From Gemmatimonadota bacterium (GTDB taxonomy: Bacteria; Gemmatimonadota; Gemmatimonadetes; Gemmatimonadales; GWC2-71-9), in assembly GCA_039591795.1 (NCBI GenBank), contig JBDHCY010000015.1, positions 1-56,669 on the forward strand: DNA of 56,669 nucleotides. The letters are read 5' to 3'. Within the stretch, counting starts at the first letter, position 1; every line of letters begins with the position of its first letter. The notes beneath the pieces were generated by a model, which made no database searches, had not been told where the DNA came from, and was given only the letters and a program-made list of their open reading frames with translations. This document shows positions 2,900-56,669 of this stretch, one piece after another. A program made the position numbers and the translations under genes.

Positions 2900-2955
2900 A
2901 CCATTCCCTGGAGACCGGAATCATACTTTGTGGGCACTCGACGGGGGCTCGCCAC

Positions 2956-3603: not shown

Positions 3604-3622
3604 CGCCCCAAGTGGAACCTCG

Positions 3623-3655
3623 CGCCGCTCCCCGTGGTACCACGGGCGAGCGGCG
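3623..3655 (+). other. Strong hairpin/palindrome between the sigma and anti-sigma genes
   Basis: CGCCGCTC-CCCGTGGTACCACGGG-C-GAGCGGCG contains a perfect 16-bp palindrome at 3631-3646. Confidence 0.6.
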
Positions 3656-3659
3656 TGCA

Positions 3660-4160: not shown

Positions 4161-4188
4161 TCATTCTCGATCGGTACTTTTCGGCTAT

Positions 4189-9030: not shown

Positions 9031-9064
9031 GCCACCCTCTCGCCGCCGTTCGCTGACCGGGATC

Positions 9065-10485: not shown

Positions 10486-10502
10486 GAGCGAGCTCACTCA
10501 CC

Positions 10503-11336: not shown

Positions 11337-11459
11337 CGCGGAAGGGGTCTAGAATCGACGCCCTTGACAACCGTGCAAAAGCACGCCACCGGGCAGACAG
11401 ACGATTTCAATTCACATCTTGTCGCCCGCCAGCACACGAACCAAATTCTGCCCGGCACT

Positions 11460-12404: not shown

Positions 12405-12637
12405 AAACAACACGGCGATCTGCACAGCAGGGCAAAGAGTTCCCGGAGCGGCGGTCGAATTTCGAGCTTCGGGAGGTACTCGACGAGTTTCTACGGCTCA
12501 CGAGACATCTCGCGCGGCACGCGCGCGACCTGCCCGACGACGAACTGGCCGACATCGTCCGTCGCCTCGAGTGGCTCGCCGACGAGGTCGTCCGGATCAC
12601 GACCGCCATAACGGGATCGGATTTGACCCAGAGGTGA
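12401..12637 (+). CDS. Small helical hypothetical protein
   Basis: 78-aa ORF with ATGA overlap on the upstream stop. Amphipathic helical sequence (ELREVLDEFLRL…RLEWLADEV). Confidence 0.65.
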   Translation: MKTTRRSAQQGKEFPERRSNFELREVLDEFLRLTRHLARHARDLPDDELADIVRRLEWLADEVVRITTAITGSDLTQR

Positions 12638-12658
12638 CGACCGGTTAGGCGACAACAG

Positions 12659-40222: not shown

Positions 40223-41043
40223 GCAAGACGACCGACCCCCCCAAGAGCACCAAGCGGCAAACGCTCACACTGATCGTGCACCGGGACGGAGCGCTTGAGT
40301 CGCGCACGTTCCGTATCCCCGTGTGGGTCGCACGGTTCGCCCTTGGGCTGGCAATCGCCACGGGTGTCTTGGTGCTGCTCGGTGTGGCCTTCTACGGCCC
40401 GCTCTTGAGAACCGCGGCACGCGTACCTGCGCTCGAGCGCGATGTCGAGCGCCTGAGCGCAGAGAACGAGCGGGTCACGGCGCTTGCCGCGGCTCTCGAT
40501 CGCGCCGAAACCCGATACGTCGACCTGCGCCAAGTGCTGGGTGCCGACATCGTGCCCGCTGTCCAGACGGCCAGCAACGAACGACCGACCGTGGCGCCAG
40601 CAATCGTCGCGGCATACCCAAACGCTGCACCACGGTTCAGTGCCGGGCCGAACATTCCAACCTACTGGCCGGTTGCACTCGCGGAGGGATTCATTACGCG
40701 GGGCCTCATTGGGCCGGGTGGAGATGAGGAATCGCACTTCGGAATCGACATCGCCGTGCCGGGCGGTACCCCCGTTCGAGCCTCGGGCGGCGGCACCGTC
40801 GAAGAGGCCGGCAGCGATCCGGAATACGGTCTCTTCGTGCTTCTTGGGCACCCCGGTGGCTACCAGAGCATGTACGGACACGCTTCTCGCGTACTCATAA
40901 GCGTGGGAGACCGAGTCGAAGCCGGCCAAGTAATCGCGTTATCGGGTAATACGGGTCGCTCAACCGCCCCGCACCTTCACTTCGAGGTAAGACGGAGCGG
41001 CAGCCAACTCGACCCCATCACCGTTCTGAAGGAGGTTCCCTGA
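40219..41043 (+). CDS. Membrane-anchored M23 family peptidase (TM, coiled coil, LytM domain)
   Basis: HFGID (HxxxD), YGH, and GRSTAPHLHFEV (HxH). TTGA overlap with parB. Confidence 0.93.
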   Translation: MSKTTDPPKSTKRQTLTLIVHRDGALESRTFRIPVWVARFALGLAIATGVLVLLGVAFYGPLLRTAARVPALERDVERLSAENERVTALAAALDRAETRYVDLRQVLGADIVPAVQTASNERPTVAPAIVAAYPNAAPRFSAGPNIPTYWPVALAEGFITRGLIGPGGDEESHFGIDIAVPGGTPVRASGGGTVEEAGSDPEYGLFVLLGHPGGYQSMYGHASRVLISVGDRVEAGQVIALSGNTGRSTAPHLHFEVRRSGSQLDPITVLKEVP

Positions 41044-41486
41044 TGGCTCGCGCATCGGGCCGTGACGAGCGACACCCGCCAGTCGGCGAGGGAAGCCTCT
41101 CGATCATCGCCAAGGGAACCTCAGTCAAGGGCAACCTCACCGCCGACGGCGTCGTCAAGGTGGAGGGCGAGGTCGTGGGTGCTATCCACGCGGAACGCCA
41201 GGTACTTGTGAGCCGCGACGGCCGTGTCGAAGGTGATATCTACGCTCCCGAAGTGATCATCGGGGGTCACGTCCAGGGGTCGATATACGCAGACGATCGG
41301 GTCGAACTCCAGACAACGGGCTCCGTGGCCGGTGACATCTCCACGCGCCGGGTCTTAGTAGAGGAAGGCAGCCAGCTCAACGGCGCCCTGCGGATGGCAG
41401 ATTCTGCCGAAGCCCCCAAGCCAAGCCAGTCAACCAAGCTGCCAGAGCGCTCGGGCCACGCCCATCCTGAATTTGCCGAACCCTGA
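41043..41486 (+). CDS. Bactofilin (polymer-forming cytoskeletal protein)
   Basis: SIIAKGTSVKGNL..DG.VKVEG.V.G.I…GRVEGDI…V.GDI. TGATG overlap with the M23 stop. Confidence 0.93.
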   Translation: MARASGRDERHPPVGEGSLSIIAKGTSVKGNLTADGVVKVEGEVVGAIHAERQVLVSRDGRVEGDIYAPEVIIGGHVQGSIYADDRVELQTTGSVAGDISTRRVLVEEGSQLNGALRMADSAEAPKPSQSTKLPERSGHAHPEFAEP

Positions 41487-41489
41487 CCA

Positions 41490-41522
41490 TTATCCACAGG
41501 GGGGTGTGCAACCTGTGGATTA
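41490..41522. promoter_or_regulatory. DnaA-box cluster
   Basis: Perfect TTATCCACA at 41490-41498, degenerate TGTGCAACC at 41505-41513, and TGTGGATTA at 41514-41522 (1 mismatch). An AT-rich tract follows. Confidence 0.75.
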
Positions 41523-41557
41523 TTTTCTCACTGTCTGCTCACTATTTAGTTACTGTC

Positions 41558-42322
41558 ATGTCGGTTGCCGTTGATACCACCGCCGTTGTCGCTGCATTGG
41601 ACGAGATCCTCTCCTCGGCCACGACACCAGACTACCCCGACGCGCACAACGGACTTCAGCTGGCAAACACCGGAACTGTGACCCGCGTCGCCGCTGCGGT
41701 TGACGCAAGTGTCGCGACAGTAGAAGCGGCGGCAAGCGCGGCAGCCGACTTCCTCCTTGTTCACCACGGGCTCCTGTGGGGAGGCGGGCGCCCGTGGGTT
41801 GGACGTGACTATCGACGTCTCGCAACCCTCATCCGAGGAGACATCGCCGTCTACGGTGCCCATCTTCCGCTCGACGCACATCCTGACGTGGGGAACAACG
41901 CCCTTCTGCTGCGCGCACTCGGGGCTCTCCCAGGGGGCAGATTCGGGGCGTATCAAGACCTCGAGATTGGCTGGTGGGGACAGGCAGATCTCACGCGCGA
42001 CGAGCTGGTTGACCGCGTCCGAACGGCCGTGGGCCGCGATGTCTTCGTCATGCCGTTCGGGCCGAGTCAGGTGCAACGGATCGGAGTGGTGACCGGGGGC
42101 GGTGGCTCGATGATCTCGGAGGCCCACGCAGCCGGGCTCGACGCGTTTGTCACGGGTGAAGGCTCCCACCACACCTATTTCGATGCGCAAGAGCTGGGCA
42201 TCACCGTGATCTATGCTGGCCACTATGCGACGGAGACATTCGGTGTGAAGGCGCTCGCTGAACTCGTTGCCAAGCGCTTCGGTCTGCCCTGGAGCTTCAT
42301 CGACCTGCCGACGGGACTCTGA
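41558..42322 (+). CDS. Nif3-like dinuclear metal-centre protein (YbgI/GTP cyclohydrolase I type 2)
   Basis: NGLQ, LLVHHG, HLPLDAHP..GNN, TGE..HH and GHYATE. Confidence 0.93.
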   Translation: MSVAVDTTAVVAALDEILSSATTPDYPDAHNGLQLANTGTVTRVAAAVDASVATVEAAASAAADFLLVHHGLLWGGGRPWVGRDYRRLATLIRGDIAVYGAHLPLDAHPDVGNNALLLRALGALPGGRFGAYQDLEIGWWGQADLTRDELVDRVRTAVGRDVFVMPFGPSQVQRIGVVTGGGGSMISEAHAAGLDAFVTGEGSHHTYFDAQELGITVIYAGHYATETFGVKALAELVAKRFGLPWSFIDLPTGL

Positions 42323-42367: not shown

Positions 42368-44185
42368 TCAGAACGCCCACGCCCCAGATAGGATCACCTG
42401 CCGGTAGCGGTAGTCGGCGTCTCCCGTCGCAAACGAGTTGAGGCCCGTGCTCGAGAACGCAAACGACATTCCGATCTCCCGGCTGGGGCCGATGAGATAC
42501 GCCAGTCGAGCCGATCCACGGGCGGCTGCCTTAAGGGAACCGCTTGACCCTACGCGCTGTAGGCCTGGCGCGAGCTCGGCGATGGCTACCCACGCACCGA
42601 ATTCGCGGATCCACCGCCCGCCGACCTCGAGAAGGCTGTAGAAATCCGGATTGAAGTAGCCGTCGTTTCGATCTGGCCGCATGAAGTCGACATTCGGCTC
42701 CGCGAAGCCGAAAGCGAGAAGGGTGGCACCGAAGGTCCAGGGCCGTCCCACTCGCCGGGTGACGCCGACATAACCACCGAAGCGCGAGTTCCCGAACGTG
42801 CCCTGGTAGTCCGCGTAGGCGACGCCTCCGACGAGAACCCAGCGGCGCGCCGGCTCGTAGCGACCTGACACCGCCCATTCACGTATCTCCACTCCGTTCG
42901 CTATCATCGGGGCAGTAGCGCCCAGCGAGCCGGAGCGGTAGCGCAGTGTGCCGCCCACTCCGACGTGGGTTGGGCTGGCGATCTCGGCTCGCAGCTCGGG
43001 AACGGTTCCTGAGGCGGTGGTGTCGTCACCGTCGCCAACACCTAGCCCCAGTGAGAAGGCCCATCCCCCAGCGGCATGGACCCGTCCGCTCACCAGGACT
43101 CGCCAGAAATCTCGTTCGCCTCCGAAGCCCTGTGCCGACCGTGCCGTGACCTCTGCTCCGACGTTTATCCGCGGCCGCACGTGCCAGTCTCCGCGAACGA
43201 CTACGGTTCGAATGCGATTCGAGTCGGAGTCACTCTCGTACAGCAGCGCCGGGGCGATGTGGGGCGCGAGAGCCGCAAGTGTCCACTGCCGCTCGATGCG
43301 CACATCCGGGTCGGACGGCGCGAGCCGATGCGCGTGTTCGATGACGTCGTACGCATCGCCAGGCCGTGCCTGCCACCGCAGGGTCTGGGCAAGGCCTACG
43401 AGCGAAGGGACGTCGTCGGGCCGATCACCGAGCACCGACAGCCACGCCTGCTCTGCGCCACGCAGATCGCCGCTCCAACTTCGCACGCGCGCCAGCCCAC
43501 GCTTGGCCTCTATGTTGTCAGCTTGCTGGGCCAGGACTTCGGTGTACACGGTCTCTGCGCTGTCGAATGCACCTCCCCAGGAGAGAACCTGTGCCAGGCC
43601 AAGCAGCGCCTCGAGGTCGTTTGGATCATTCGCCGCCAACGCTGCGAATGCAGTAGCCGCTTGTTCGAACCGTTTCGCCCATCCAAGGACTCGAGCACGA
43701 TCGCGGCCGATCGATCGATCGTCGGGAGCGACCTCGAGCACACGGTCGTAGGCGAGGAGCGCGACTTCAAAATCTCCGGTCCACGACGCGAACTGTGCGA
43801 GCGCCTTGTACGCCGGCAGATGGTCCGGCCGCTCGTCGATGATCTGCTCGACGGCCGCCACTGCGGCCTGCGGGTCACCTTGCCAGGCCAGCGTGCGCGC
43901 TCGATCGATTCTCCCCTCGAGGTTCTCGGGTGCGATGGCAACCAGTTGATCGAATAGTGCCAGGCTCTGGTCGTAGCGCTCAGCCCATGCGTGGATGATC
44001 GCCATTCGATGAAGCGCCCGCTGGTCTGTCGAGTCCGCGACAAGCCGCTGCGCGTACAGCCGGGCGGCCGTCTCGACGTCACCACTGTCCCAAGCCGAGT
44101 CGGCGGCCGTCTGCGCGGCGGCAGAAAGACAAAGCCCCACGGCGAGCGACAGCGCCATGGCCCCGATCCGCAGATGCCTCATCAT
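42368..44185 (-). CDS. TPR-repeat + C-terminal beta-barrel outer-membrane protein (putative polysaccharide export pore)
   Basis: Signal peptide, about 7-8 TPR-like repeats (LGLAQVLSW, GLARVRSW), a beta-strand C-terminal domain and terminal …GAWAF. ATGA overlap with the upstream stop. Confidence 0.75.
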   Translation of the reverse strand: MMRHLRIGAMALSLAVGLCLSAAAQTAADSAWDSGDVETAARLYAQRLVADSTDQRALHRMAIIHAWAERYDQSLALFDQLVAIAPENLEGRIDRARTLAWQGDPQAAVAAVEQIIDERPDHLPAYKALAQFASWTGDFEVALLAYDRVLEVAPDDRSIGRDRARVLGWAKRFEQAATAFAALAANDPNDLEALLGLAQVLSWGGAFDSAETVYTEVLAQQADNIEAKRGLARVRSWSGDLRGAEQAWLSVLGDRPDDVPSLVGLAQTLRWQARPGDAYDVIEHAHRLAPSDPDVRIERQWTLAALAPHIAPALLYESDSDSNRIRTVVVRGDWHVRPRINVGAEVTARSAQGFGGERDFWRVLVSGRVHAAGGWAFSLGLGVGDGDDTTASGTVPELRAEIASPTHVGVGGTLRYRSGSLGATAPMIANGVEIREWAVSGRYEPARRWVLVGGVAYADYQGTFGNSRFGGYVGVTRRVGRPWTFGATLLAFGFAEPNVDFMRPDRNDGYFNPDFYSLLEVGGRWIREFGAWVAIAELAPGLQRVGSSGSLKAAARGSARLAYLIGPSREIGMSFAFSSTGLNSFATGDADYRYRQVILSGAWAF

Positions 44186-46827
44186 CGCCCGTTTCCGCTG
44201 TGAACTGGGGAGTTCGAGCTCCCCTCGAAGACTTTCCTCAGGGCGTCGAACACCGGCCGACGCCGCTCCCGCCATAGCGGCTCGTTCCACGCCCGCCACG
44301 AGAACTCGGCCACGTCGAACGACGACCCAGAGCGAGGCCAAGCATACCACGCACCCTTCGACTGCACGGCCGCCACGACGCGGATGCCCGTGACCGGTTG
44401 TGCCGCCTCTTCCTCTGACAGCGTTCCGATCCAACCGCCGTCATTCACCCAATCCGGTGCGTGCTGAAGGACTCGCCGTGAGCTCGGGTCGGTCACGTTG
44501 AGGAACGCCCACGGGATGCGAATCTCGATGACCCCAGCGTCGGGCAAAGACTCCCAGAAACCGTCCGCGACAGGTGCCGACCGGAGCACGCCACGATCGT
44601 AGCCAATCGTCGCATACTCGGTCGTGTCGCGACCCACCCGCCTCCTGTTCGTGATGACCCGCAATGAGTCGAATTGGCCGTCGCTTCGCGGCGCCGACAG
44701 AAAAGGCGCATTCATCTCCCATATCAGCCGCCCGGAGAAGAAGCCTGGGGGCTCCGAACCCTCGGCCAAGGGCATGACCTGCAACCTCTCCTCGGCGGCG
44801 GGTCCAACCTCGATCGGGAGGTACCGGAACAGGCTCGCGGCCGGATCGGCCAGGAGCCGGACCCCCTCAGCCGTGGCGTGTAGCACGAGCTCCACCCCTA
44901 CGGGGAGGATCGGCCCCCGTCGGCCGGGCCAGCTGAACGATCCCGCGTCGGCCCGTATCACGTCGAAGCCGATGAAGAGGTCCTCCGGCTGCCCGTCACC
45001 GGCCTCGAAAAGGAGCCAGACCGCTGCCTCGTCAGCGAACGCGCGCAGCCCCGCTCCCGTGGAATCGGCGTAGAGGGGCTCGATCGTCTGCCATTCACCG
45101 AGCCGTTCGGCGAGCGACTCTCCTGGGAGTCGCGGCTCCGGCTCCATCGCGACCACCCCGTACGCCTGCTCGGGGTCGAGCGTGTTCAGCCAGAGCCGAT
45201 TGCGCTCCGCGGGGAGAAGAAAATCGTTGAAGAGCCAACTCTTTTTGAACCACTCGTCGATCCATGCGAAGACGACCCCACCTGCCATTCCCGCCGCGGC
45301 GATCTCGCGTGTCATGCGCACGTCGAGGTCAGCCATCGCCTGCTCGGTGTGCCCCCCGTGGTGCCAACCATCCGGGTGGAGGTGCGCAATGCCCAGACTG
45401 GCCGGTACTCCGTACTCCGCGACGAGGACCGGCAGATCGTCATGATGGCTCTTGAGATCGACCAGATACCCGAAATAGGAAGAGGGGCCTTCGGCCGAGT
45501 ATGCAGCGGCATAGCCCGGGTCGAGCACCATGAAGTCCGGGTAGTATGGATAGACGTGATATGCGGCGAAGTAGCCCGCTGGGAACGAGAAGGTCGTACG
45601 AACGAGTGACGGGTCCAGCGTCACTCCGTCATTGTCGTACTCGGCGGTCGCGGTGGGGGACGGTTCACCGAGAGCCACGCGCAGCTGCACTTCCTCCTGT
45701 GCCGTGGGCTCAGTCGGGTGCGTGAGCGGGTCGAGCGTGGGCCAGTTGGTGTAGGCGATTGGCCGTTGGGCTCCATACGTCGTCATCTCGTGCGCAATCA
45801 TCGTCTCGCACTTGGCCGCGAGCCAGACGTCCATCGCCGTCCCACCTTCGAGCCGCAGAAAGCGGCCAGACCACGCAGAAGTATCCGGCTGCCGCTCGTT
45901 ATAGACGGCCACTGAGTGAGGCTCCCACTCGCGGCCGACCACGTAGGCAAGCGTCCAGCGCGACACGTCCGCTTGGTAGCGTCCTGAGGCATGACCACGG
46001 CGCGGCTCGATGCGTGCGCGCCCGTGCACGAGGTCCACCACGCGACGGATCTCATCATCGACCTCCTGGTTCCACTCGAGGTCGTCGTAGTCGTCGTCGG
46101 GGGGGAGCTCGATCCAGACACCGTGGAGTAGCCACAGTGGGCGATCCGGGTGGGCGAGATTGTACTCCCGCAGCACCTGGTAGAAATGCGGCGGATGAAT
46201 CGTATAGAGGCGAATCGTGTTGGCGCCCATCTCACCGATAGCGGCGATCCACCGAGCGTAGACCGCCGAATCGGGGAATTGGCTCGGGAATCGCCCGGGG
46301 ACCGCGGCACCGAGGTTGACGCCATTGACGTAGAACGGCGTCCAGCCCTCGTCGGTGCGCACCTCAAACCGGTCGCCGCTCACGCGAGCGGGGTAGGTGA
46401 GGGGTGCGAGCCTCGGGAGGTATGACCGCGCCTCGGCGTTCGCCGGGTCGATGGCGAGTGTACGTTCAAAGGCGGTCCGGGCAGCTGCGTGGTCGGCCTC
46501 GCGCCACGCGATGAGACCGATCCCAACCAGAGCATCCACGACATCCGGTTCATCAGCGAGTACACCCTCGAACCAGGTGCGGGCCTCGCCGAGTTGGTTC
46601 CGACGCAGGGCTGCGTAGCCCAGTCCCGTCCGCGCCCCGGAGTGAGTCGGGCAACGGGTCGAGGCCACGGTGAATGCCTCGGTCGCGACGGTGATCTCCC
46701 CTGCCCGGTACGCCATCCACGCACTGTCGACGAGCACATCGACCAGGTAGCCACAGCCTTCCTGGGCCCTGGCAATCCCGGCGCCGAGCAGGGTGGCGAG
46801 GAGGAACACGACCGAAGCGCGGCCCAT
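44182..46827 (-). CDS. Exported TPR + clan GH-A-like TIM-barrel glycoside hydrolase
   Basis: Signal peptide, three TPRs, then GVNLG, GANTIRLYT, VGREWEP, AYHVYPYYP, VLVAEYG and FAWIDEWFK. Start placed at ATG 46827, just after the GT2 stop. Confidence 0.7.
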   Translation of the reverse strand: MGRASVVFLLATLLGAGIARAQEGCGYLVDVLVDSAWMAYRAGEITVATEAFTVASTRCPTHSGARTGLGYAALRRNQLGEARTWFEGVLADEPDVVDALVGIGLIAWREADHAAARTAFERTLAIDPANAEARSYLPRLAPLTYPARVSGDRFEVRTDEGWTPFYVNGVNLGAAVPGRFPSQFPDSAVYARWIAAIGEMGANTIRLYTIHPPHFYQVLREYNLAHPDRPLWLLHGVWIELPPDDDYDDLEWNQEVDDEIRRVVDLVHGRARIEPRRGHASGRYQADVSRWTLAYVVGREWEPHSVAVYNERQPDTSAWSGRFLRLEGGTAMDVWLAAKCETMIAHEMTTYGAQRPIAYTNWPTLDPLTHPTEPTAQEEVQLRVALGEPSPTATAEYDNDGVTLDPSLVRTTFSFPAGYFAAYHVYPYYPDFMVLDPGYAAAYSAEGPSSYFGYLVDLKSHHDDLPVLVAEYGVPASLGIAHLHPDGWHHGGHTEQAMADLDVRMTREIAAAGMAGGVVFAWIDEWFKKSWLFNDFLLPAERNRLWLNTLDPEQAYGVVAMEPEPRLPGESLAERLGEWQTIEPLYADSTGAGLRAFADEAAVWLLFEAGDGQPEDLFIGFDVIRADAGSFSWPGRRGPILPVGVELVLHATAEGVRLLADPAASLFRYLPIEVGPAAEERLQVMPLAEGSEPPGFFSGRLIWEMNAPFLSAPRSDGQFDSLRVITNRRRVGRDTTEYATIGYDRGVLRSAPVADGFWESLPDAGVIEIRIPWAFLNVTDPSSRRVLQHAPDWVNDGGWIGTLSEEEAAQPVTGIRVVAAVQSKGAWYAWPRSGSSFDVAEFSWRAWNEPLWRERRRPVFDALRKVFEGSSNSPVHSGNGR

Positions 46828-46829
46828 TC

Positions 46830-48236
46830 TCAGCCCCGGAACCCGCGGCGTCGCATCTCGCCCCAACGCTGCTCGCCACGGAGTGCATTCCAAAACCCCT
46901 TCAGGCGCCAAAAGACAGTCAACTGGCGGTACCCGAAAGGCTCGAGGAATGCGTAGAACAGCATGCGCATGAAATCGCCGAAGCGTGGATAGACACGGAA
47001 CGTGCTTTCCTCGAGAATGACAGCCCACACCGAGAGGAACATCTGGTAGCCGAGGGCCACCACGAGGAAGAGGAGCGCCACCTCGGTGTTGATGATGCCA
47101 AAGAGGGCGGCGAGAAGCGTCAGGAAGTAGCCCAGGACCTCGATGACCGGCGCGATCATTTCGCCGAAGACGAAGAATGGGAACATGACGAGTCCAGCGA
47201 GACCATAGCGCCGGTTGAGAAGCATTCCGCGGTGGGTGAGCATGGTCAGCACGAGACCACGATGCCAGCGCTCTCGCTGGCGGCCCAGCGTGCCGACGTC
47301 GGTCGGCACCTCGGTCCACGCGACGGGATCCGGAATGAACGGGATCTGGTACGGCACGCGCGTATTTCGGAGGTGCTTGTGCAACCGAACGACGAGGTCG
47401 AGGTCCTCGACGACGTTGCCAGTGGTGTACCCGCCGATCTCGAGGAGGTAGTGGCGCTGGAAGAGGCCAAACGCGCCCGAGACGATGAGGTTGCCACCGA
47501 GGCGGTTCCAGCCGAGTCGGCCGAAAAGAAACGCTCTCAGGTACTCCGGTACCTGCACGGCGGCGAGGTACTCGCGTGGGAGACGGGCGTCCGTGACCCG
47601 TGCGTGCTGAATCGCGCAGCCGTTCGCCACGCGGATCGTGCCGCCGGCAGCAGCCACGCGTGCGCCGAGGAGGAACGGGCGCGCGAGTCGAACGAGCGCG
47701 TCGGGTGTGATGATCGTGTCGGCGTCGGCAGCCACGACGAGGGGGTAGCGCGCCGCGCTGAGTCCCACATTGAGAGCGTCCGCCTTACCGCCGTTCTCCT
47801 TGTCGACGACGAGGAGATTCGAATGGGTCCGAGAGCGATAATAGCCATGGACAGGCCGCGTTTTGAGCCGACGCGGAAAGGCCGGCGGCACCTCGAAGAG
47901 CTCGAACGCCTCCATGAGGCGCTGCATCGTCCCGTCCCGCGATCCGTCGTTGATGACGATCACTTCGTGTTGGGGGTACTGCAACGACAGCTGGGCGGCG
48001 ACGCTGTCGCGGATGTTGGCCTCCATGTTGTAAGCCGGGACGATCACCGAGACCGGGGGCAGGGCCTGCGATCCGAGGTAGCGGGAGAGGTCGTCGTCGT
48101 GCGTGATCTGCCAGTGCTTCCAGATCTCGGGAATCGCGAGAAACAGCAGCAGCGCATAGAACGAGTTCAGGCCCAGGAAGTACCAGATGATGGCCCCATC
48201 GACCGTCGGTAGCAGCGCTTCGCGGATCCAGTCCAT
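46830..48236 (-). CDS. Processive membrane GT2 glycosyltransferase (PgaC/IcaA/BcsA-like synthase)
   Basis: N-terminal TM, VPAYN, NDGS, KENGGKADALN, DAD, VED, QRERW and C-terminal TMs. Start placed at ATG 48236. Confidence 0.92.
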   Translation of the reverse strand: MDWIREALLPTVDGAIIWYFLGLNSFYALLLFLAIPEIWKHWQITHDDDLSRYLGSQALPPVSVIVPAYNMEANIRDSVAAQLSLQYPQHEVIVINDGSRDGTMQRLMEAFELFEVPPAFPRRLKTRPVHGYYRSRTHSNLLVVDKENGGKADALNVGLSAARYPLVVAADADTIITPDALVRLARPFLLGARVAAAGGTIRVANGCAIQHARVTDARLPREYLAAVQVPEYLRAFLFGRLGWNRLGGNLIVSGAFGLFQRHYLLEIGGYTTGNVVEDLDLVVRLHKHLRNTRVPYQIPFIPDPVAWTEVPTDVGTLGRQRERWHRGLVLTMLTHRGMLLNRRYGLAGLVMFPFFVFGEMIAPVIEVLGYFLTLLAALFGIINTEVALLFLVVALGYQMFLSVWAVILEESTFRVYPRFGDFMRMLFYAFLEPFGYRQLTVFWRLKGFWNALRGEQRWGEMRRRGFRG

Positions 48237-48247
48237 GGTGGGCCCGG

Positions 48248-49309
48248 TTATGCCGCGTAGTCGGCGACGGCCGCCGCGCTCAGGCCGAGGATGTAATTCG
48301 CCATCTCTCGGGCGTATCGGTCGTCGCCGGCCTGGACGGCGGCGAGGATTTCGAGGCCGGGCTGGCCCAGCTGCCGCAGGGCGATCGCCGCGCGCAGCCG
48401 CACCCACCAGTTCTCATCGCTCAGAGCGCGGTGCAGCGCCGGGCACGCTTCGACGGCGCCGATCGCGCCGAGGGCTGCAGCTGCCTGTGTGCGCACCTGC
48501 CACGCGGCATCACCGAGCAGCGTGAGGAGAGCCTTCGTCGCGGCCGGATGCGGGAAGCTTCCGAGCGTTCGTGCTGCAGCGACGCGAACCTCGAGGTTCT
48601 CGTCCTTGGCGTACGGCAGCACGTACTGAAACAGCTCAGGAACGGCGAGCTCGCCCGCCAGGGTCACCCACGCCTGCCGCTGCACGGCGGCGTATTCTCC
48701 CTTGAGGCGCTCGATGAGCATGGGCCCCAGCGGCCCTCGTAGAGAGACCAGGGTGTCGAAGACAAACCCCCGCACCACCCTGGGCGCGGTGACGGCCTTG
48801 TCGAGGATCGTCGCCAGGAGATCGGGAGTGCGCACGCGAGTGAGCGCGGAGATCGCGGCGATCTGGATGGCCGGGTTTTCATCGGCCACGAGTGCACGCA
48901 CCAGATCGAGGTCGTCCTCGGTCGCCACACCCGCGAGGAGCCGAGCCGATCCGAGCCGCCGCCACCACAGGCGAGAGCGAGCATTGCGCCGAATGCGTCT
49001 CGACCATTTAGTCGGGCGGATCACGCTCACCAACTGTTCCCACTGCTCACCCTCGATCTGCGCCCCATACTGTTGGAACACCGAGGCGACCGTCGCAGGG
49101 CCCCGGCCGTCGATGTCGGCGCGGAAGTCATCGGCGCTGAGCTCACCCGCGAGCCACGCTCGGACTACTCCGACGAACTGTCCTTCGTCGACCATCGTTC
49201 GCTCGAACCGACGACGGAGCAGCCATCGGTGGGCGATCAAGAGAAACAACGTGCCGCCGAGGAAGGCGAGCTGGACCACGGCGATCACGAGGAGGACGGA
49301 GGCCTTCAT
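48248..49309 (-). CDS. Membrane-anchored HEAT-repeat protein
   Basis: N-terminal TM, then repeats D..LEVRVAAARTLG, D.AWQVRTQAAAALG and DENWWVRLRAAIAL. ATGA overlap with the regulator stop. Confidence 0.88.
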   Translation of the reverse strand: MKASVLLVIAVVQLAFLGGTLFLLIAHRWLLRRRFERTMVDEGQFVGVVRAWLAGELSADDFRADIDGRGPATVASVFQQYGAQIEGEQWEQLVSVIRPTKWSRRIRRNARSRLWWRRLGSARLLAGVATEDDLDLVRALVADENPAIQIAAISALTRVRTPDLLATILDKAVTAPRVVRGFVFDTLVSLRGPLGPMLIERLKGEYAAVQRQAWVTLAGELAVPELFQYVLPYAKDENLEVRVAAARTLGSFPHPAATKALLTLLGDAAWQVRTQAAAALGAIGAVEACPALHRALSDENWWVRLRAAIALRQLGQPGLEILAAVQAGDDRYAREMANYILGLSAAAVADYAA

Positions 49310-50835
49310 GCGGCCCCCCCGGGGCGGAACAGTCGCTCGACTTTTGCCACCACGACCGGAATGCTCACCGGCTTGACGAGGTAATCGGCCGCGCCACAAC
49401 GAAGCGCTTTGATCTGCTCGCGCTCGCCGGAGTGGACGGTCACGATGACAATCTGGAAATCCCCGGGCCGAGCACGGTGGATCTGCTGCAGTGCGCTGAA
49501 ACCGTCGAGGCCCGGCAGGTCGACGTCGAGGAGCACCACCGGCTTCCGGTCCTGTGTATCGCTTGCGAGGAGCGCATCGAGCGCTTCGCGACCGTTCGTG
49601 AATGCCTGGCACCGGAAGCCACGGTTCGTGAGTGCGTACTCGAGCATTTCGAGGAGGGCGGTGTCGTCCTCGATGAGGTAGACGTCAACCTCTGCCGTCG
49701 TCCCTCGGTGGGAGGGCGCCGCCGAGAATACATCGAGACTGCGGCCCCTCCGCACTCCCGCCAATACGGCCGCTTTGAGCTCATGTGCCCGAACGGGTTT
49801 CACCAACACTCGGTCCGCTCCTGCCTCGAACGCTTCCAGTCGGCGATGGGGATCTTCGTGGCCTGTGACCACCACGGCGGGGAGATCGCGCCATTCCGGT
49901 GAGCTGCGGAGTGCTCGGAGGATCTCTGGGCCCCGGGCGGTCGGCATCTCGAGGTCGAGGATGAGCAGGTCGGGAGGCGCGTCCGCGGCTCGGGCGAACA
50001 CCTGGAGCGGGTCGTCGAGCACTTCGACTTCCAACCCCCAGGACTCGAGCGCCGTGCGGAGGAACTTCTGGAAGCCCGGGTCGTCGTCGATCAGGAGTAC
50101 GCGCTCGCCGAGAACCTGTGTCGGGGAGAGAAGACGGGCCCACCCGTCGAAGAGGGCGTGCCCGTCGTGCGGGCCGGCGAGGACGAGATCGGCCCCGGCC
50201 CCGGCCGCCGCGATTCGCTCGGTCGCGCTGTTGGTCTCGAGCAGGGCAACGATCGGGACACCCCGCGCGGCCTCACGGAGCTTGCTGATCCAAGCGGAGT
50301 TCCCGGCAGCAGATCCCCCTCCACCCACAGCGATCAGTTGCACGCCGGCGAGCGAGCGTGAAACGGCCGCTTCGACGGAGTCAGCTGTCTCGAGTCGCCA
50401 GCCCCGAGTCGAGACGGTCTCCCAGACCATGCCGCGGACCTCGGGATCGTCGTGCACCAAGAGCGCGTGGACGCCGAGCGGTACGGCGCCATTCCCCTCC
50501 GGGCCGGTGGCAGCCGCAGCCTCTAGGGCCTCGAGCTCTGCTCGAAGGGCATCCACCTGCGTTTCGACGGGACGGTTCGTCCCGCCGTCGACCCAGCCTC
50601 CCACGAGCGTCTCGATTCGTCCGGCCACCTCACCGACCTGCCCAAAGCCCCAGGTGCCGGCGGAGCCGTGCAGCTTGTGCAGGTCCCGCCGCAAAGCGTC
50701 GAGTCGATCACGCTCGGCGCCGTGTTCGTCGCCGCTCAGCGCCTCGAGGAGCGAGCGCACCTCGGCAATCCGATCCCCAATGGACCGGCGATAGCCGTCC
50801 TGCATCCGCTTCCAATCCGTTCCAGTTGCCTGCAT
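49306..50835 (-). CDS. Hpt + three receiver-domain phosphorelay protein (no output domain)
   Basis: LHKLHGSAGTWGF (Hpt). REC1 lacks the acceptor Asp (LIAVG). REC2 LILDLEMP…KP and REC3 VLLDVDLP…KP are intact. Confidence 0.9.
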   Translation of the reverse strand: MQATGTDWKRMQDGYRRSIGDRIAEVRSLLEALSGDEHGAERDRLDALRRDLHKLHGSAGTWGFGQVGEVAGRIETLVGGWVDGGTNRPVETQVDALRAELEALEAAAATGPEGNGAVPLGVHALLVHDDPEVRGMVWETVSTRGWRLETADSVEAAVSRSLAGVQLIAVGGGGSAAGNSAWISKLREAARGVPIVALLETNSATERIAAAGAGADLVLAGPHDGHALFDGWARLLSPTQVLGERVLLIDDDPGFQKFLRTALESWGLEVEVLDDPLQVFARAADAPPDLLILDLEMPTARGPEILRALRSSPEWRDLPAVVVTGHEDPHRRLEAFEAGADRVLVKPVRAHELKAAVLAGVRRGRSLDVFSAAPSHRGTTAEVDVYLIEDDTALLEMLEYALTNRGFRCQAFTNGREALDALLASDTQDRKPVVLLDVDLPGLDGFSALQQIHRARPGDFQIVIVTVHSGEREQIKALRCGAADYLVKPVSIPVVVAKVERLFRPGGAA

Positions 50836-50895
50836 CAGGCTCCGCGCTTGTCATCGTTGCGTACGCGCAAATGATGCGATTTGCGAGATCCAGCG

Positions 50896-50910
50896 GCAAT
50901 GCGTATGCCA
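50896..50910 (-). promoter_or_regulatory. Sigma54 (-24/-12) promoter of the regulator-HEAT-GT2 operon
   Basis: Minus strand TGGCATACGCATTGC (GG-N10-GC). Predicted +1 is about 50 nt before the ATG at 50835. Confidence 0.8.
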
Positions 50911-51272
50911 CGCTCTAAGGGATAGGGATCTGTGACAACGTCGGTTTCCAGCGACATTTCAAAGCTTTATATGACAACGACTTGACACGCGCCCAGCTCG
51001 CGGCTGGCCCACCCGGTCTTGGGGGACGATCAGAACCGCGGACGCATCCCCGAAACGGTCGTTGCAAGGTGCACATGGTCATTGCGCGAAGCCTTCTCGA
51101 GGACCTGGGTGTGGCTGGCACACTACAACGATGTCCTCCGGCGTCGCTCCGAATGCTGCAACCATCCGACATTCGCGTCGAGAAACTCATCGGTTTGTTG
51201 AGCGTCTGCTGCGCTCTAATGCCCAATCCGTGCTGTTTTCATACCGATCATGGCATTTGGCACGGTCTCTCC

Positions 51273-51288
51273 TGGAATGACAGTTGCA
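51273..51288 (+). promoter_or_regulatory. Sigma54-type promoter for flp copy 1
   Basis: TGGAATGACAGTTGCA (GG-N10-GC). Confidence 0.7.
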
Positions 51289-51457
51289 ACTCGTCGCAGT
51301 CGACCGAGCGAGAACGCTGTGGCTGGCGAGATCGGTCTCGCCAATCGCCAATCGGCGACGGCCTCGTCGGTCGCAGTAACTGGGGAGGGGCGCAACCCCG
51401 AATTGGGTCGGGCGCGACCCGTTCTCACCACCGGCTGGACGGCCAGGAGGCATCATC

Positions 51458-51655
51458 ATGCAGGAGCTGTGGAACCGACTGTGGAGCGACGAGTCAGGCC
51501 AGGGGATGGTCGAGTACGCCCTCATCGTCGCGCTGGTCGCAATTGGCCTAATCGCGGTGTTCCTGTACCTCCGCAATTCCGCGGGACAGGTGCTGGACAC
51601 GGCGGCCGACTCGTTGGCGGCGCAGCCCACGGCGGGCTACGTCCCGACCCCGTAG
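51458..51655 (+). CDS. flp: Flp/Fap type IVc pilin, copy 1
   Basis: AGGAGG RBS and SG|QGMVEYALIVALVAIGLI motif. Confidence 0.95.
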   Translation: MQELWNRLWSDESGQGMVEYALIVALVAIGLIAVFLYLRNSAGQVLDTAADSLAAQPTAGYVPTP

Positions 51656-51673
51656 CTGGGTCGAAGATCGGTC

Positions 51674-51720
51674 GCGCTCTCTAGGGGGGGCTGGCCATCG
51701 CCAGTCTCCCCTGAGTGCGC
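51674..51720 (+). terminator. Strong GC hairpin after flp1 (terminator or stabiliser)
   Basis: GCGC…AGGGG…CTGGC-CATC-GCCAG…CCCCT…GCGC, with no U-tract. Confidence 0.45.
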
Positions 51721-51788
51721 CAGGTCACCGAGACGCTGCGAGGTATGTCGTCGTCTCAAATGGCGCGAGACCGCCGGATGGCGGCGTG

Positions 51789-51804
51789 GGGAACAGGAGT
51801 TGCA
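51789..51804 (+). promoter_or_regulatory. Sigma54-type promoter for flp copy 2
   Basis: GGGAACAGGAGTTGCA (GG-N10-GC), at nearly the same distance from the flp ATG as copy 1. Confidence 0.6.
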
Positions 51805-51978
51805 TTGAGTCCACGATTGGCCGTGTGAGTTGTCGTGGCGGAGGGCGGAATCAGGTTCGCCCAAACCCGATGGCGTGGACTCCGCGGCTTGCAGCGCGAA
51901 GGCAGGTTGGAAAGCCCGAACTGGGTCGGGCGCGCAACCGATCTTCACCAACGGCCTGACGGGCCAGGAGGCATCACC

Positions 51979-52176
51979 ATGCAGGAGTTGTGGAACCGAC
52001 TGTGGAGCGACGAGTCAGGCCAGGGGATGGTCGAGTACGCCCTCATCGTCGCGCTGGTCGCAATTGGCCTAATCGCTGTGTTCCTGTACCTCCGCAATTC
52101 CGCGGGACAGGTGCTGGACACGGCGGCCGACTCGTTGGCGGCGCAGCCCACGGCGGGCTACGTCCCGACCCCGTGA
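51979..52176 (+). CDS. flp: Flp/Fap pilin, copy 2 (protein identical to copy 1)
   Basis: Same 65-aa sequence, with two synonymous differences and a different stop codon. Confidence 0.95.
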   Translation: MQELWNRLWSDESGQGMVEYALIVALVAIGLIAVFLYLRNSAGQVLDTAADSLAAQPTAGYVPTP

Positions 52177-52208
52177 GTCGGGTTTATCGATGCGGAATCG
52201 TCGGGTTT

Positions 52209-52238
52209 CCGGAGGCCGGGCCGTGGTTCGGCCTCCGG
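52209..52238 (+). terminator. 10-bp GC hairpin after flp2
   Basis: CCGGAGGCCG-N10-CGGCCTCCGG, with no U-tract. Confidence 0.45.
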
Positions 52239-52264
52239 CCCGCGACCGTGCACTGGGGGATTGA

Positions 52265-52789
52265 GTGCTCTCGATAGTAGCCAGCGTCGTGCTCGTCGGA
52301 GTGCTCCTCGGAGCGTGTTGGTTCGACGTTCGTGCGCGACGCATCCCCAATGCCCTCACGGTGGTCGGGGTGATTGCTGCGCTCGTCTTGCGCGGCTTTC
52401 TGGGTGCGGGGGCGGTGTTCGAGGGAATCGGGGGAGCTGGACTGGCGCTGCTCGTGGCGCTGCCGCCGTTTGCGCTTGGGATGCTGGGAGGGGGGGACGC
52501 GAAGTTGCTCGCGGCGGTCGGTGGGTTCATGGGCATCGACCATCTCCTTGGAGCACTGCTGGCGATTGCGGTGCTCGGCGGAGGCCTGGCTGTCTTCGAG
52601 GCATTGCGACGCCGCGTGCTGATCAAAGCCGTGGCGAACACATACGGCTTTGCAAAGCAGTGGTTGCTCCTGGGGCGCGCTGGCGGCGCCCCGACGATTG
52701 CTTCGCCGCACGCGCTCACGGTGCCGTACGGTGTGGCGATCGCAGGAGGGGCGCTGACGTGGTGGTTTCTGACGGGAGCGCAGTTATGA
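52265..52789 (+). CDS. cpaA: A24 prepilin peptidase (CpaA/TadV)
   Basis: FD…RRIPN, LGGGDAKL and VPYGVAI. Confidence 0.92.
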   Translation: MLSIVASVVLVGVLLGACWFDVRARRIPNALTVVGVIAALVLRGFLGAGAVFEGIGGAGLALLVALPPFALGMLGGGDAKLLAAVGGFMGIDHLLGALLAIAVLGGGLAVFEALRRRVLIKAVANTYGFAKQWLLLGRAGGAPTIASPHALTVPYGVAIAGGALTWWFLTGAQL

Positions 52790-53202
52790 GGATGTTCAGA
52801 CGTCGGAGTGAAGACAGCGGACAGGCGATGGTCGAGTTCGCGATCGTCCTGCCTCTGCTGCTGATGCTCATGGTAGCAGTGTTCGAGTTCGGCCGGGCAT
52901 GGAACGTCTATCAGGTGCTGACCGACGCGGCGCGGCACGCGGCTCGCAGTGCAACGGTTGCAGACCCCACGGTGACCCAGGATTCCGTCATCCAGATCGC
53001 GCAGAACGCAATGGCGCGTGGCGCAATCAACGTGAGCAAGGCCACCGTGACGGTAACGGGCTTTCGGACTGGGACAGGAACACCGGCGACGGTGACGATT
53101 CAGTTGCCGTATGAGTTCGTTGTCCTCCGGCCCTTCATGGGCTGGACCGCCGCCGAGTCCAATTTCACGCTCACGACGATGTTCACCATGCGGAACGAGT
53201 AG
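52786..53202 (+). CDS. tadE: TadE/TadG-like pseudopilin
   Basis: SG|QAMVEFAIVLPLLL…EFG…AAR.AAR. ATGA overlap with cpaA. Confidence 0.9.
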   Translation: MRMFRRRSEDSGQAMVEFAIVLPLLLMLMVAVFEFGRAWNVYQVLTDAARHAARSATVADPTVTQDSVIQIAQNAMARGAINVSKATVTVTGFRTGTGTPATVTIQLPYEFVVLRPFMGWTAAESNFTLTTMFTMRNE

Positions 53203-53213
53203 AGGGCTGCCCA

Positions 53214-54038
53214 ATGCGACAGCGACGATTGTGGGTGATCATGGTTTTGGCACTGGGCTCGGGCGGCTTCGCCGCCTTCTTCGCCCTACGCTACCTGCGT
53301 CAACAGACGCCACGGTTCATCGCGTCCGAAACGCCGCGTGCGAGCGTCGCGATCGCGGCGCGCGACATGAACCTCGGTACGATTCTCGGGCCGGAGGACG
53401 TGAAGCTCATCGACTGGCCGGAGGAGGCGGTGCCGCCCGGGTACGTGTCTTCGGCCGAGGCGATCGTGGGCCGTGGGTTGATCGCGCCGGTACGGGCCAA
53501 CGAAGTGCTTCTCGAGACGAAGCTCGCCACGAAGGATGCAGGAGGCGGCCTCGCGATCTCGATCCCGGAGGGCATGCGAGCGGTCAGCGTGCGGGTGGAC
53601 GAGGTCATCGGCGTCGCGGGCTTCGTCCTGCCCGCGACCAGGGTCGACGTCATGGTGACGCTTCCGCCCAGGCCGCCTCGCAGCGAGACGATGACGCAGG
53701 TGTTCCTCCAGAACATCCAGGCGCTCGCTGCTGGGCAGCTCGTGCAGCAGGATGCGGAAGGCAAGCCGGTGATTGTCGCAGTGATCACACTCCTCGTGAG
53801 CCCCGAACAGGGCGAGCTCCTCGTCCTCGGCGCGAACGAAGGCAAGATCCAGCTGGCACTTCGCAACACACTGGACTTGGACGATATCGAAACGCGGGGT
53901 GCGCAGGTGAGCGATCTGCTGCGCCGAATCCCGCGCGCGCCGCGCCCCAACAACACGGCACGTGTAGTGGCACGCGGCGATACGTCGACCGTCGTCGAAG
54001 CATACAAGGGCGGCGTCCGAACTCTCATCAAGTTCTAG
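53214..54038 (+). CDS. cpaB: Flp pilus assembly protein CpaB/RcpC
   Basis: SAF domain (IAARDM..G), GMRAVSV, GVAGFVLP..RVDV and LALRN. Confidence 0.95.
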   Translation: MRQRRLWVIMVLALGSGGFAAFFALRYLRQQTPRFIASETPRASVAIAARDMNLGTILGPEDVKLIDWPEEAVPPGYVSSAEAIVGRGLIAPVRANEVLLETKLATKDAGGGLAISIPEGMRAVSVRVDEVIGVAGFVLPATRVDVMVTLPPRPPRSETMTQVFLQNIQALAAGQLVQQDAEGKPVIVAVITLLVSPEQGELLVLGANEGKIQLALRNTLDLDDIETRGAQVSDLLRRIPRAPRPNNTARVVARGDTSTVVEAYKGGVRTLIKF

Positions 54039-54057
54039 GGGAAGGGGATAACCGATC

Positions 54058-55356
54058 ATGCATCGCGTAGCAGTCGAGCGTAACCCGCGCGGGCGCGGCC
54101 GCGCGTGGTGGCTCGCCCTGACGGGGCTCGGGCTCCTCGTGAGTCCTGTGACGGCGCTGGCACAGCGCGTCGTTACCGAGCCACAACAGGTGATCACTGT
54201 GTCGCTCGGCGAGTCCGCGTTGCTCGTCGAAGTGACGGCGATGCAACGGTTCTCGATCGGCGACCCATCGGTGGCGGACGCGGCCGCAGTTTCACCGAAT
54301 GAGCTCCTCATCACGGGGAAGAAACTCGGAACGACGAGCTTGCTCGTGTGGGACGCCAGCGGTGACGTGCGGATGTATTCGATTCAGGTCACCGCCGACG
54401 CACCGGCACTCGAGCGCTATCTCCGAGGCCTGTTCCCCGACGACACTGTGGCCGTCGCAGCAAGCGGCAACACGGTCACGCTGTATGGGCGCGTGCGCTC
54501 GGCCAACGTGGCCCGGCAGATCGTGCAAATCGCGGAAGGGACCGGCGCTACGGTCGTAGACCGCCTCCAGGCCCCACCGGCGAGACAGGTGGCGCTCAAG
54601 GTGCGCTTCGCCGAAGTCAGCCGTAGTGCGTCCAAGGAGATGGCTTCCCAGCTCGCGACGCTCAACCCGCACAAGCTGACAAGCGACGGCGACTGGTTCG
54701 GCGAGACGATCTCCGACGGGTTCATCAATTTTCTCCTGTCCAACGACAACGCCAGTTTCCTGGCGGCGATCAAGGTCCTGCAGTCCAACGGTCAGTTCAA
54801 GACGCTGGCCGAACCGACGCTGCTGGCCCTTCCGGATGAAGAGGCGTCATTCCTCGCGGGCGGCGAGTTCCCGTTCCCGATCGTGCAAGGCGGCACCAAC
54901 AACACGGTGACGATCCAGTTCAAAGAATTCGGCGTGAAGCTGACGTTCACTCCGAACGTGACCGAGAGCGGGAACATCCGGCTCAAGGTGGCGCCCGAGG
55001 TGTCGTCCCTCGACTTCGCCAACGGCCTGTCATTCCAGGGCTTTCAGATTCCGACGCTGCGTACACGGAAGGCGGAAACGTCAGTCGAGTTACGCGAGGG
55101 CCAGCACCTGGCGATCGCCGGCCTCATGGACAACACGCTGACCGACAACGTGACGAAGATTCCGCTCCTCGGTGACATCCCAATCCTGGGCGCGTTCTTC
55201 CGGTCACACGACGCACAACAGAACCGATCGGAACTGCTCATCGTGGTGACTCCCGCGCTCGTGACGGCCACGGCTACGGCGCCGGAGATGCCTACAGGCG
55301 AGCCGGGGACGTGGGATTGGTACGGGGCGCTCAAAGACGGACGCACTCGCAAGTAG
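54058..55356 (+). CDS. cpaC: Tad secretin CpaC/RcpA
   Basis: GKKLGTTSL, QVALKVRFAEV, LAEPTL, FLAGGEFP, FKEFGVKL and IPLLGDIPILG.FF. Confidence 0.95.
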   Translation: MHRVAVERNPRGRGRAWWLALTGLGLLVSPVTALAQRVVTEPQQVITVSLGESALLVEVTAMQRFSIGDPSVADAAAVSPNELLITGKKLGTTSLLVWDASGDVRMYSIQVTADAPALERYLRGLFPDDTVAVAASGNTVTLYGRVRSANVARQIVQIAEGTGATVVDRLQAPPARQVALKVRFAEVSRSASKEMASQLATLNPHKLTSDGDWFGETISDGFINFLLSNDNASFLAAIKVLQSNGQFKTLAEPTLLALPDEEASFLAGGEFPFPIVQGGTNNTVTIQFKEFGVKLTFTPNVTESGNIRLKVAPEVSSLDFANGLSFQGFQIPTLRTRKAETSVELREGQHLAIAGLMDNTLTDNVTKIPLLGDIPILGAFFRSHDAQQNRSELLIVVTPALVTATATAPEMPTGEPGTWDWYGALKDGRTRK

Positions 55357-55385
55357 CCGACGTGGGATTGGAGGAGGGCCGCACG

Positions 55386-56600: not shown

Positions 56601-56616
56601 CGGAGCCAGAGACCCT

Positions 56617-56669
56617 ATGCAGCTGGACGGGAATGGACTCATGGACGGTAACCATCTACGAAGCGCCGT
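56617..56669 (+). CDS. 5' end of the next tad-cluster gene (truncated by the window)
   Basis: ATG 56617 is open to the window end. Identity (perhaps CpaE) is inferred from gene order only. Confidence 0.3.
   Translation, partial: MQLDGNGLMDGNHLRSA

Follow-up and report, generated by a model that had tools for sequence, protein, structure and literature searches.

The DNA analysed here, hereafter the window, is a stretch of 56,669 nt from a Gemmatimonadota bacterium (assembly GCA_039591795.1, contig JBDHCY010000015.1), with a G+C content of ~65%, and all positions given below are numbered within it. Its named homologues likewise assign it to Gemmatimonadota. On its minus strand five open reading frames (ORFs), spanning nt 42368–50835, lie in close succession and code for a phosphorelay regulator, a membrane protein made of HEAT repeats, a family-2 glycosyltransferase (GT2), an exported protein resembling glycoside hydrolases (GH-like protein) and a porin (Table 1). 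We read this operon as a probable machine for the secretion of an exopolysaccharide (EPS). The tight coupling of the five genes, reported in a first-pass annotation, was found at every junction. The stop codon of the regulator and the start codon of the HEAT gene share an ATGA (nt 49306–49309), the junction reading gccgcATGAagg; the HEAT stop codon (TAA) is followed, after 11 nt, by the ATG of the GT2 gene at nt 48236; the GT2 stop codon (TGA) is separated by 2 nt (ga) from the ATG of the GH-like gene at nt 46827; and the stop codon of the latter overlaps the porin ATG in cgATGAtg, with the ATGA at nt 44182–44185. Terminator-like sites within the operon were not above the number expected by chance.

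Table 1. Genes and promoter-like motif of the operon in the window (positions in nt).
Feature	Position	Strand	Description
Regulator	49306..50835	-	Hpt/REC phosphorelay protein, 509 aa
HEAT protein	48248..49309	-	Single-pass membrane protein, 353 aa
GT2	46830..48236	-	Inner-membrane processive family-2 glycosyltransferase, 468 aa
GH-like protein	44182..46827	-	Exported tetratricopeptide repeat (TPR) + clan GH-A-like glycosidase (predicted), 881 aa
Porin	42368..44185	-	Exported TPR + 16-strand outer-membrane beta-barrel (predicted), 605 aa
Sigma54-like -24/-12 motif TGGCATACGCATTGC	50896..50910	-	60 nt before regulator ATG

The GT2 is matched by the Pfam families Glyco_tranf_2_3, Glycos_transf_2 and Glyco_trans_2_3. 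Across 33 homologues (59–74% identity) no change is seen in its motifs D97, D171-A-D173, E277-D278 and Q320-R-E-R-W324, and a conserved WGEMxRxGF is found at the C-terminus. An N-terminal transmembrane (TM) segment (aa 15–38) precedes the cytoplasmic GT-A domain, that is followed by a C-terminal hydrophobic block (aa 347–407), so that the protein combines the motifs of processive GT2 enzymes with flanking TM helices, as in the general class of polysaccharide synthases. Among the curated NCBIfam models the best match was TIGR03937 (PgaC_IcaA), at 127 bits vs. a cut-off of 422.3, and other synthase models scored far lower (44.6 vs. 699 for CelA, TIGR03030; 40 vs. 550 for NodC). BLASTP against E. 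coli retrieved PgaC (26.5% identity, E 1e-26), YaiP (E 3e-10 over 234 aa, half its length) and BcsA (E 1e-6), with no significant match to NfrB (E 1.2); when the remaining proteins of the E. coli K-12 loci were considered, PgaB, PgaD, BcsB, BcsZ, YbcH and YaiO gave no BLASTP match to any of the operon proteins. The GT2-family profile, run against PDB sequences, matched unrelated GT2 enzymes only, and these just along a short GT-A stretch at the N-terminus; no close relative was found among the solved synthases.

In a maximum-likelihood tree, the GT2s of several phyla that are linked to a HEAT gene form a compact group, and PgaC, YaiP, BcsA and NfrB stand on branches of 5–10 changes per site. 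The HEAT-linked group has no supported subclade that includes any of these four E. coli references; NfrB joins a weakly supported (70/9) polytomy that contains the group. The reference set was small, without IcaA, HasA, Alg8 and CrdS, and long branches of this kind are not dependable; firmer evidence comes from the scores against curated models, where all cut-offs were missed. The GT2 was thus not found within a characterised family, in line with the first-pass annotation, that could not match the operon to a named pathway. Likewise, no description of a HEAT-partnered GT2 synthase was retrieved from the searchable literature, whose coverage leaves subscription journals largely outside.

The porin consists of a signal peptide (aa 1–25), 17 TPR helices (aa 27–306), with TPR families matched in Pfam, and a 16-strand barrel (aa 309–604), the C-terminus (...GAWAF) ending in Phe. 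The barrel had been guessed from the sequence of nt 42368–44185, and it was indeed obtained by structure prediction: the model, with a predicted local distance difference test (pLDDT) score of 90.5, contains 17 helices and 16 strands, and Foldseek matched it best with E. coli BcsC (9b8a, E 7e-12; 9b8h; 6tzk), as well as with PelB (9h80_M, TM-score 0.67 over the target). The predicted structure thus joins an outer-membrane barrel to a periplasmic TPR scaffold, as in the general class of export porins. At sequence level, the scores against curated models were low (PgaA TIGR03939, 51 bits vs. 367; a second PgaA model, 26 vs. 1043; BcsC, 22 vs. 858), and the barrel alone gave no match to YaiO (PF19413) and only a sub-threshold porin match in Pfam, both at E <=10.

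In the GH-like protein a signal peptide (aa 1–21) and a TPR region (aa 27–140) are followed by a predicted (beta/alpha)8 barrel (aa ~165–560) and by beta-sandwich domains (aa ~560–870). The 740 residues beyond the TPR had no match among Pfam, NCBIfam or PDB sequences; even at E <=10 the core did not match Pfam, and phmmer against PDB sequences retrieved TPR proteins only. The guess of a glycoside hydrolase was supported by an AlphaFold model (pLDDT 87, from a 40-sequence alignment), whose best Foldseek match was the GH157 endo-beta-1,3-glucanase 9g5g (E 7e-14), followed by GH5 mannanases (4qp0, 1uuq), GH2 and GH72 enzymes, the last being the glucanosyltransferases Gas2 and Gel4. All these families belong to clan GH-A of the CAZy classification. 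On the modelled strands, R206 lies on strand 2, H235 on strand 3, H424 and Y426 on strand 6 and W522 on strand 8; E300-W-E302-P303 comes after strand 4 (aa 292–297) and E471 ends strand 7 (aa 467–472), residues being placed via the secondary structure of the model and not by superposition. The model thus shows the barrel of clan GH-A, with a candidate acid/base Glu after strand 4 and a candidate nucleophile Glu after strand 7, and the candidate catalytic Glu, Arg, His, His/Tyr and Trp residues are invariant or nearly so in 40 homologues (~55% identity). Apart from the Asn of the Asn-Glu-Pro (NEP) motif, the core as modelled has the fold and the residue set of clan GH-A, without a match to any sequence family, and is a candidate for the periplasmic hydrolase or lyase of the general class.

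The HEAT protein (Pfam HEAT_2, 3e-28) has one TM helix (aa 7–25), immediately followed by RWLLRRRFER. Because of this Arg run after the TM helix, the positive-inside rule would place the HEAT solenoid in the cytoplasm. Seventeen homologues from several lineages, once aligned, share the family motifs ARSRxWWRRL and DxxWWVRLRAAxALRQLG. A word-indexed search with the HEAT protein gave 79 matches only, and the HEAT-family profile, when run against a library of 1.8 billion representatives, was dominated by giant HEAT-repeat proteins and was uninformative on family size.

The domain calls proposed in the first-pass annotation for the GT2, the HEAT protein and the regulator were borne out by Pfam, TM prediction and alignment, with one amendment concerning the first receiver (REC) of the regulator. 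In this protein, for which no TM segment was predicted, Pfam recognised an Hpt domain (1e-12, aa 18–107) and Response_reg in two stretches (1e-50). The Hpt domain carries H53 within HKLHGSAG; REC2 (aa 246–357) has the triad D293/T323/K346 and REC3 (aa 384–504) the triad D437/T465/K488, so that both the phosphotransfer His and the receiver triads of a phosphorelay protein are present. On the contrary, the region of aa ~120–235 is only REC-like: in the alignment with orthologues the acceptor Asp is absent and a Gly is found at its position.

The regulator aligns to orthologues of 826, 784 and 796 aa that carry a GGDEF domain between REC2 and REC3. In the window the entire GGDEF domain is missing and 18 residues join REC2 to REC3. 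In locus L095 the orthologue is a REC-Hpt-REC-GGDEF-REC protein with an intact GGEEF; in L002, a Binatia metagenome-assembled genome (MAG), the same arrangement (826 aa) has a degenerate motif (SGAVF), and in L089, where the GH-like and porin genes lie convergent alongside, an Hpt-REC-GGDEF-REC protein of 784 aa is also degenerate (VGDRL). The two closest syntenic relatives, L092 and L093, have a single REC before the HEAT gene. The gene before HEAT varies among relatives, but the domain at its end, and so directly upstream of HEAT, is in every case a receiver orthologous to REC3. Given that the orthologous regulators are built as (REC-)Hpt-REC-GGDEF-REC, c-di-GMP belongs to the history of the family, and the window regulator appears as a version from which the GGDEF domain has been cleanly deleted. 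The first-pass annotation had pointed out that PilZ, GGDEF and deacetylase domains are lacking and that the HEAT protein and a phosphorelay module take their positions; this is true for the operon, none of these domains being found among the five proteins in Pfam and NCBIfam searches, but GGDEF does occur in the orthologous regulators of L095, L002 and L089. Of 34 aligned sequences, 32 retain the acceptor Asp of REC3 along with T/S and K; the other two have an Asn (L092, nt 9301–9660) or a Glu (L024, nt 13515–13865) at the acceptor position, and these two receivers may be locked-off or phosphomimetic versions present in some lineages.

The co-occurrence of the genes in other genomes was examined from both the GT2 and the GH-like side. 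In the loci found by GT2 searches, namely L001 (a 5.1-Mb genome), L002 and L004, the HEAT gene lies directly upstream, mostly with an overlap of 1 or 4 nt, and in 8 or 9 of 10 further GT2-sampled loci (Gemmatimonadota and the phyla of genomes G121 and G122) it is at or near the GT2 gene, so that HEAT–GT2 adjacency was found in three phyla. Among 120 other Gemmatimonadota genomes, 36 (~30%) encode the GT2, and in two further phyla the family was present in 4 out of 60 other genomes each. When one genome per species was scanned, the GH-like gene turned up at no fewer than 586 loci, of which 80, nearly all from Gemmatimonadota, were kept. In most of the kept loci having sufficient downstream sequence the neighbour of the GH-like gene is a TPR-barrel gene, usually placed directly after it, and REC-HEAT-GT2 is found no more than 10 kb away in roughly one third to one half of the 80. 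In the 120 genomes both the GT2 and the GH-like gene occur in 20, the GH-like gene only in 4, the GT2 only in 16 and neither in 80 (odds ratio ~25).

Gene order supports the same association. The HEAT, GT2, GH-like and porin genes are co-directional in the window, in L092, L093 and L095, and also in L096, from the phylum of the Binatia MAG, where HEAT, GT2, GH-like (32% identity) and TPR-barrel genes follow in the same order. The fullest version is that of L095 (nt 336–13000, G106:C2), from another class of Gemmatimonadota, in which a CHASE3-PAS hybrid histidine kinase, the REC-Hpt-REC-GGDEF-REC regulator, HEAT, GT2, GH-like and porin genes all run in one direction. Fusions were found as well: many, independent GH-like+porin proteins (P0212 and ~15 other clusters, 1400–1530 aa) and a GT2+GH-like protein (P0190, 50% and 57% identity), the latter a single record that errors of assembly or gene calling could have produced. 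HEAT, GT2, GH-like and TPR-barrel genes thus co-occur elsewhere, sometimes fused, and the operon is no isolated case but belongs to a large family, its gene set being found again in many uncultured genomes.

Some loci depart from this arrangement. In L104 and L105 (G053:C4 and G045:C3), which belong to a distant GT2 subclade (~38% identity), about 2 kb separate HEAT and GT2, and an additional gene may be inserted there. In L094 (nt 4027–5668, G060:C15) porin and GT2 are 1.6 kb apart with no GH-like match between them; on the operon strand the gap holds one 209-aa ORF only, without Pfam match, and either replacement or decay of the GH-like gene may have taken place. L002 (nt 1886–3100 and 9407–10837) has a TPR-YaiO-domain barrel (PF19413, 5e-44) and a 476-aa protein with a weak dockerin-like match only, in place of the 16-strand porin and the GH-A-like protein, which indicates that the periplasmic and outer-membrane parts are interchangeable across lineages.

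Taken together, motifs, structural models and co-occurrence support what the first-pass annotation had proposed, i.e., a complete synthase-dependent export machine, and we consider it likely that the operon encodes such an EPS secretion system, of a widespread family apparently undescribed in the searchable literature. Of the three findings that the first-pass annotation had named as speaking against it (a GT2 within a characterised family having this gene set, no barrel in the model of the last protein, no co-occurrence in other genomes) none was made. The polymer to be exported would be made at the inner membrane, where the GT2 would polymerise a nucleotide sugar and thread the chain across. 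In the periplasm the exported TPR-glycosidase, whose activity we infer from its modelled fold and residues, would trim, clear or remodel the chain, and the TPR-porin would receive it and release it via the BcsC/PelB-like 16-strand barrel. To judge by the folds of the enzymes, the polymer is probably a beta-linked glycan, since GT2 enzymes are inverting and the fold modelled for the glycosidase beside it is that of clan GH-A, which is retaining.

The one-TM HEAT protein would complete the machine as a partner that the synthase requires on its cytoplasmic side. As for control, H53 of the Hpt domain would be phosphorylated by a hybrid histidine kinase whose gene lies elsewhere, the phosphate would move on to the receiver domains, and the last receiver (D437) would dock on the HEAT solenoid and turn the synthase on, the HEAT protein thus taking the role that PgaD, PilZ, Alg44 or PelD have for c-di-GMP. 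This path from REC3 through HEAT to GT2 is a tentative proposal, to which we give somewhat less than an even chance. That the HEAT protein represents a novel type of adaptor in the membrane, able to read receiver phosphorylation and to gate a processive synthase, and hence part of a His-Asp phosphorelay switch without c-di-GMP, seems less likely than not.

Several observations weigh against the reading outlined above. The functional role proposed for the HEAT protein comes from gene linkage. No sugar-nucleotide or modifying gene is present within the operon. In a run search the stretch was contained in only 2 sediment metagenome DNA runs and in no RNA run, and no sigma54 motif was found upstream of the orthologous regulators in 10 relatives. 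The closest syntenic relative, L092, has the Asn at the acceptor site of REC3. At about half of the 80 loci with the GH-like gene there is no GT2 within 10 kb, and 16 of the 36 genomes with GT2 are without the GH-like gene. The acid/base motif of the GH-like protein, G-R-E-W-E-P in all 40 homologues, has Trp (or Arg) where Asn is usual, and its catalysis is only predicted. Finally, c-di-GMP could be the actual activator, considering the orthologous regulators with GGDEF domains, an EAL gene beside the HEAT–GT2 pair of relative L091 and the 8 GGDEF genes of the host genome.

These last points are the reason why c-di-GMP control is kept as the main rival to direct gating of HEAT by a receiver. 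The secretion machine would be the same, but the HEAT protein or the conserved C-terminus of the GT2 would bind c-di-GMP produced by cyclases encoded elsewhere, the Hpt-REC protein being a remnant with a tuning or scaffolding function. To our knowledge, only a handful of synthase-dependent systems are understood (cellulose, poly-N-acetylglucosamine (PNAG), alginate, Pel and, lately, Nfr), and all of them are gated by c-di-GMP. Moreover, the degenerate GGDEF domains of L002 and L089 resemble the degenerate-GGDEF receptors of c-di-GMP known in other EPS systems. On the contrary, the known receptor types (PilZ, the PgaCD interface, degenerate GGDEF, MshEN), a GGDEF I-site or other known c-di-GMP-binding domains were not found in the five operon proteins by Pfam and NCBIfam searches. 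The GGDEF domain also turns out to be evolutionarily dispensable, being degenerate in some relatives, deleted in the window and absent from the closest ones, where a single REC is all that is left, whereas the receiver adjacent to HEAT and its acceptor Asp are conserved. On balance we hold c-di-GMP control to be unlikely.

A second alternative concerns the GH-like protein, that could act as a transglycosylase or as a non-catalytic, glycan-binding chaperone remodelling or guiding the chain. The replacement of the NEP Asn (R-E300-W-E302-P), the presence of the glucanosyltransferases Gas2 and Gel4 among the Foldseek matches and the large C-terminal beta-sandwich part would be consistent with such a role, but both candidate catalytic Glu and the clan GH-A residues are (nearly) invariant in the homologues, and a true hydrolase or lyase is present in most synthase-dependent systems, which makes the alternative quite improbable. 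Last, that REC-HEAT-GT2 makes a cell-bound or periplasmic glycan and that the TPR-glycosidase and TPR-porin form a separate, neighbouring module for uptake or degradation of external glycan would account for the GH-like loci lacking a nearby GT2, for the 16 and 4 genomes with only one of the two genes and for the HEAT–GT2 pairs that occur in other phyla without GH-like or porin genes, but it is very hard to reconcile with the strong genome-level association, the shared direction of the four genes in the window, in L092, L093 and L095 and, in another phylum, in L096, the fusion proteins, the overlapping or 2-nt-spaced stop and start codons of the window and a TPR + 16-strand barrel architecture that is the one of export porins (BcsC, PelB, PgaA) and not of uptake porins.

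The surroundings of the operon were also inspected. The sigma54 motif reported in the first-pass annotation is real as a sequence, and RpoN is encoded in the host genome, but the motif is not conserved in the relatives, as said, and 6 matches to sigma54-type motifs with <=1 mismatch occur in the window vs. ~2 expected; it is therefore weak evidence for a promoter. On the operon strand, ~490 nt upstream of the first ATG, the c-di-GMP-II-GAG riboswitch model matched nt 51321–51372 (minus strand) at 22.3 bits, below the gathering score of 40; the UGGCGAGACCGA stretch is exact, and the central 43 positions of the model are replaced by 9 nt (34 nt short). A c-di-GMP riboswitch in the leader was judged not credible, the match being sub-threshold and without the centre of the model, and probably due to chance. 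Divergent from the operon, a Tad/Flp pilus cluster occupies nt 51250–56669 on the plus strand, with TadE-like, RcpC/CpaB, secretin and TadG-like genes, and this back-to-back position suggests a joint attachment locus or role. Directly downstream of the operon and on the opposite strand, a bactofilin and a NIF3/DUF34 gene (nt 41043–42322, plus strand) are housekeeping context, outside the secretion system.

If our reading is correct, the gene set adds to the known systems a phosphorelay input, a clade of synthases for which a HEAT-repeat protein is the obligate partner, and a glycosidase-like family with no match among Pfam, NCBIfam or PDB sequence entries. Gemmatimonadota are an abundant, little-studied phylum of soil and sediment, and a synthase found in ~30% of the sampled genomes, as well as in other phyla, could account for matrix or adhesion polymers there. 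Should the phosphorelay switch be true, the relatives would preserve the stages of a change from intact to degenerate to deleted GGDEF, making the operon family a test case for synthase activation that moves from a second messenger to direct phosphotransfer.

Among the known systems, PgaABCD/IcaADBC is the closest for the synthase, PgaC being the nearest to the window GT2 among both curated models and E. coli proteins. In both systems the gene next to that of the synthase encodes a small membrane partner, and a glycosidase of the periplasm (predicted for the window operon) is combined with a porin made of TPR and 16 strands. Nevertheless, the window operon misses all curated cut-offs widely, including the PgaC_IcaA equivalog and the PgaA model, and has no deacetylase and no match to PgaB or PgaD, so that it does not belong to the PNAG systems. 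In particular, the partner is a 353-aa HEAT solenoid instead of the two-TM PgaD, the glycosidase has a predicted GH-A fold with its own TPR where PgaB has a GH153 domain, and the operon encodes a phosphorelay protein and no recognised c-di-GMP-binding part.

The operon resembles the Bcs cellulose systems in its inner-membrane processive GT2 (QxxRW), in a putative glycanase of the periplasm and in its outer-membrane TPR-porin, for which BcsC is the best structural match. It differs from them in having neither a BcsA with PilZ nor BcsB, in a putative glycanase that is not of the GH8 family of BcsZ, and in a porin with 8 TPR pairs, far fewer than in BcsC. Pel offers in PelB a structurally good match for both barrel and TPR, and the degenerate GGDEF found in the regulators of the operon's relatives recalls that of PelD; however, Pel relies on PelF, an enzyme of family GT4, and on a separate complex in the membrane, has no GT2, and the window is without any GGDEF. 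In YaiP-YaiO and NfrB-NfrA-YbcH a GT2 is likewise combined with an outer-membrane barrel, but those loci have no HEAT partner and no phosphorelay protein, and neither an orthologous GT2 nor an NfrA or YaiO barrel was found in the operon.

For the proposed switch, a parallel comes from EpsW-EpsZ of Myxococcus xanthus, where an EPS enzyme is switched on post-translationally by a receiver domain in its phosphorylated form (PMC12802240). That system is Wzx/Wzy-dependent, its target is a phosphoglycosyl transferase, it has no HEAT adaptor and it shares no homology with the operon. Still, its mechanism matches the one proposed here for REC3.

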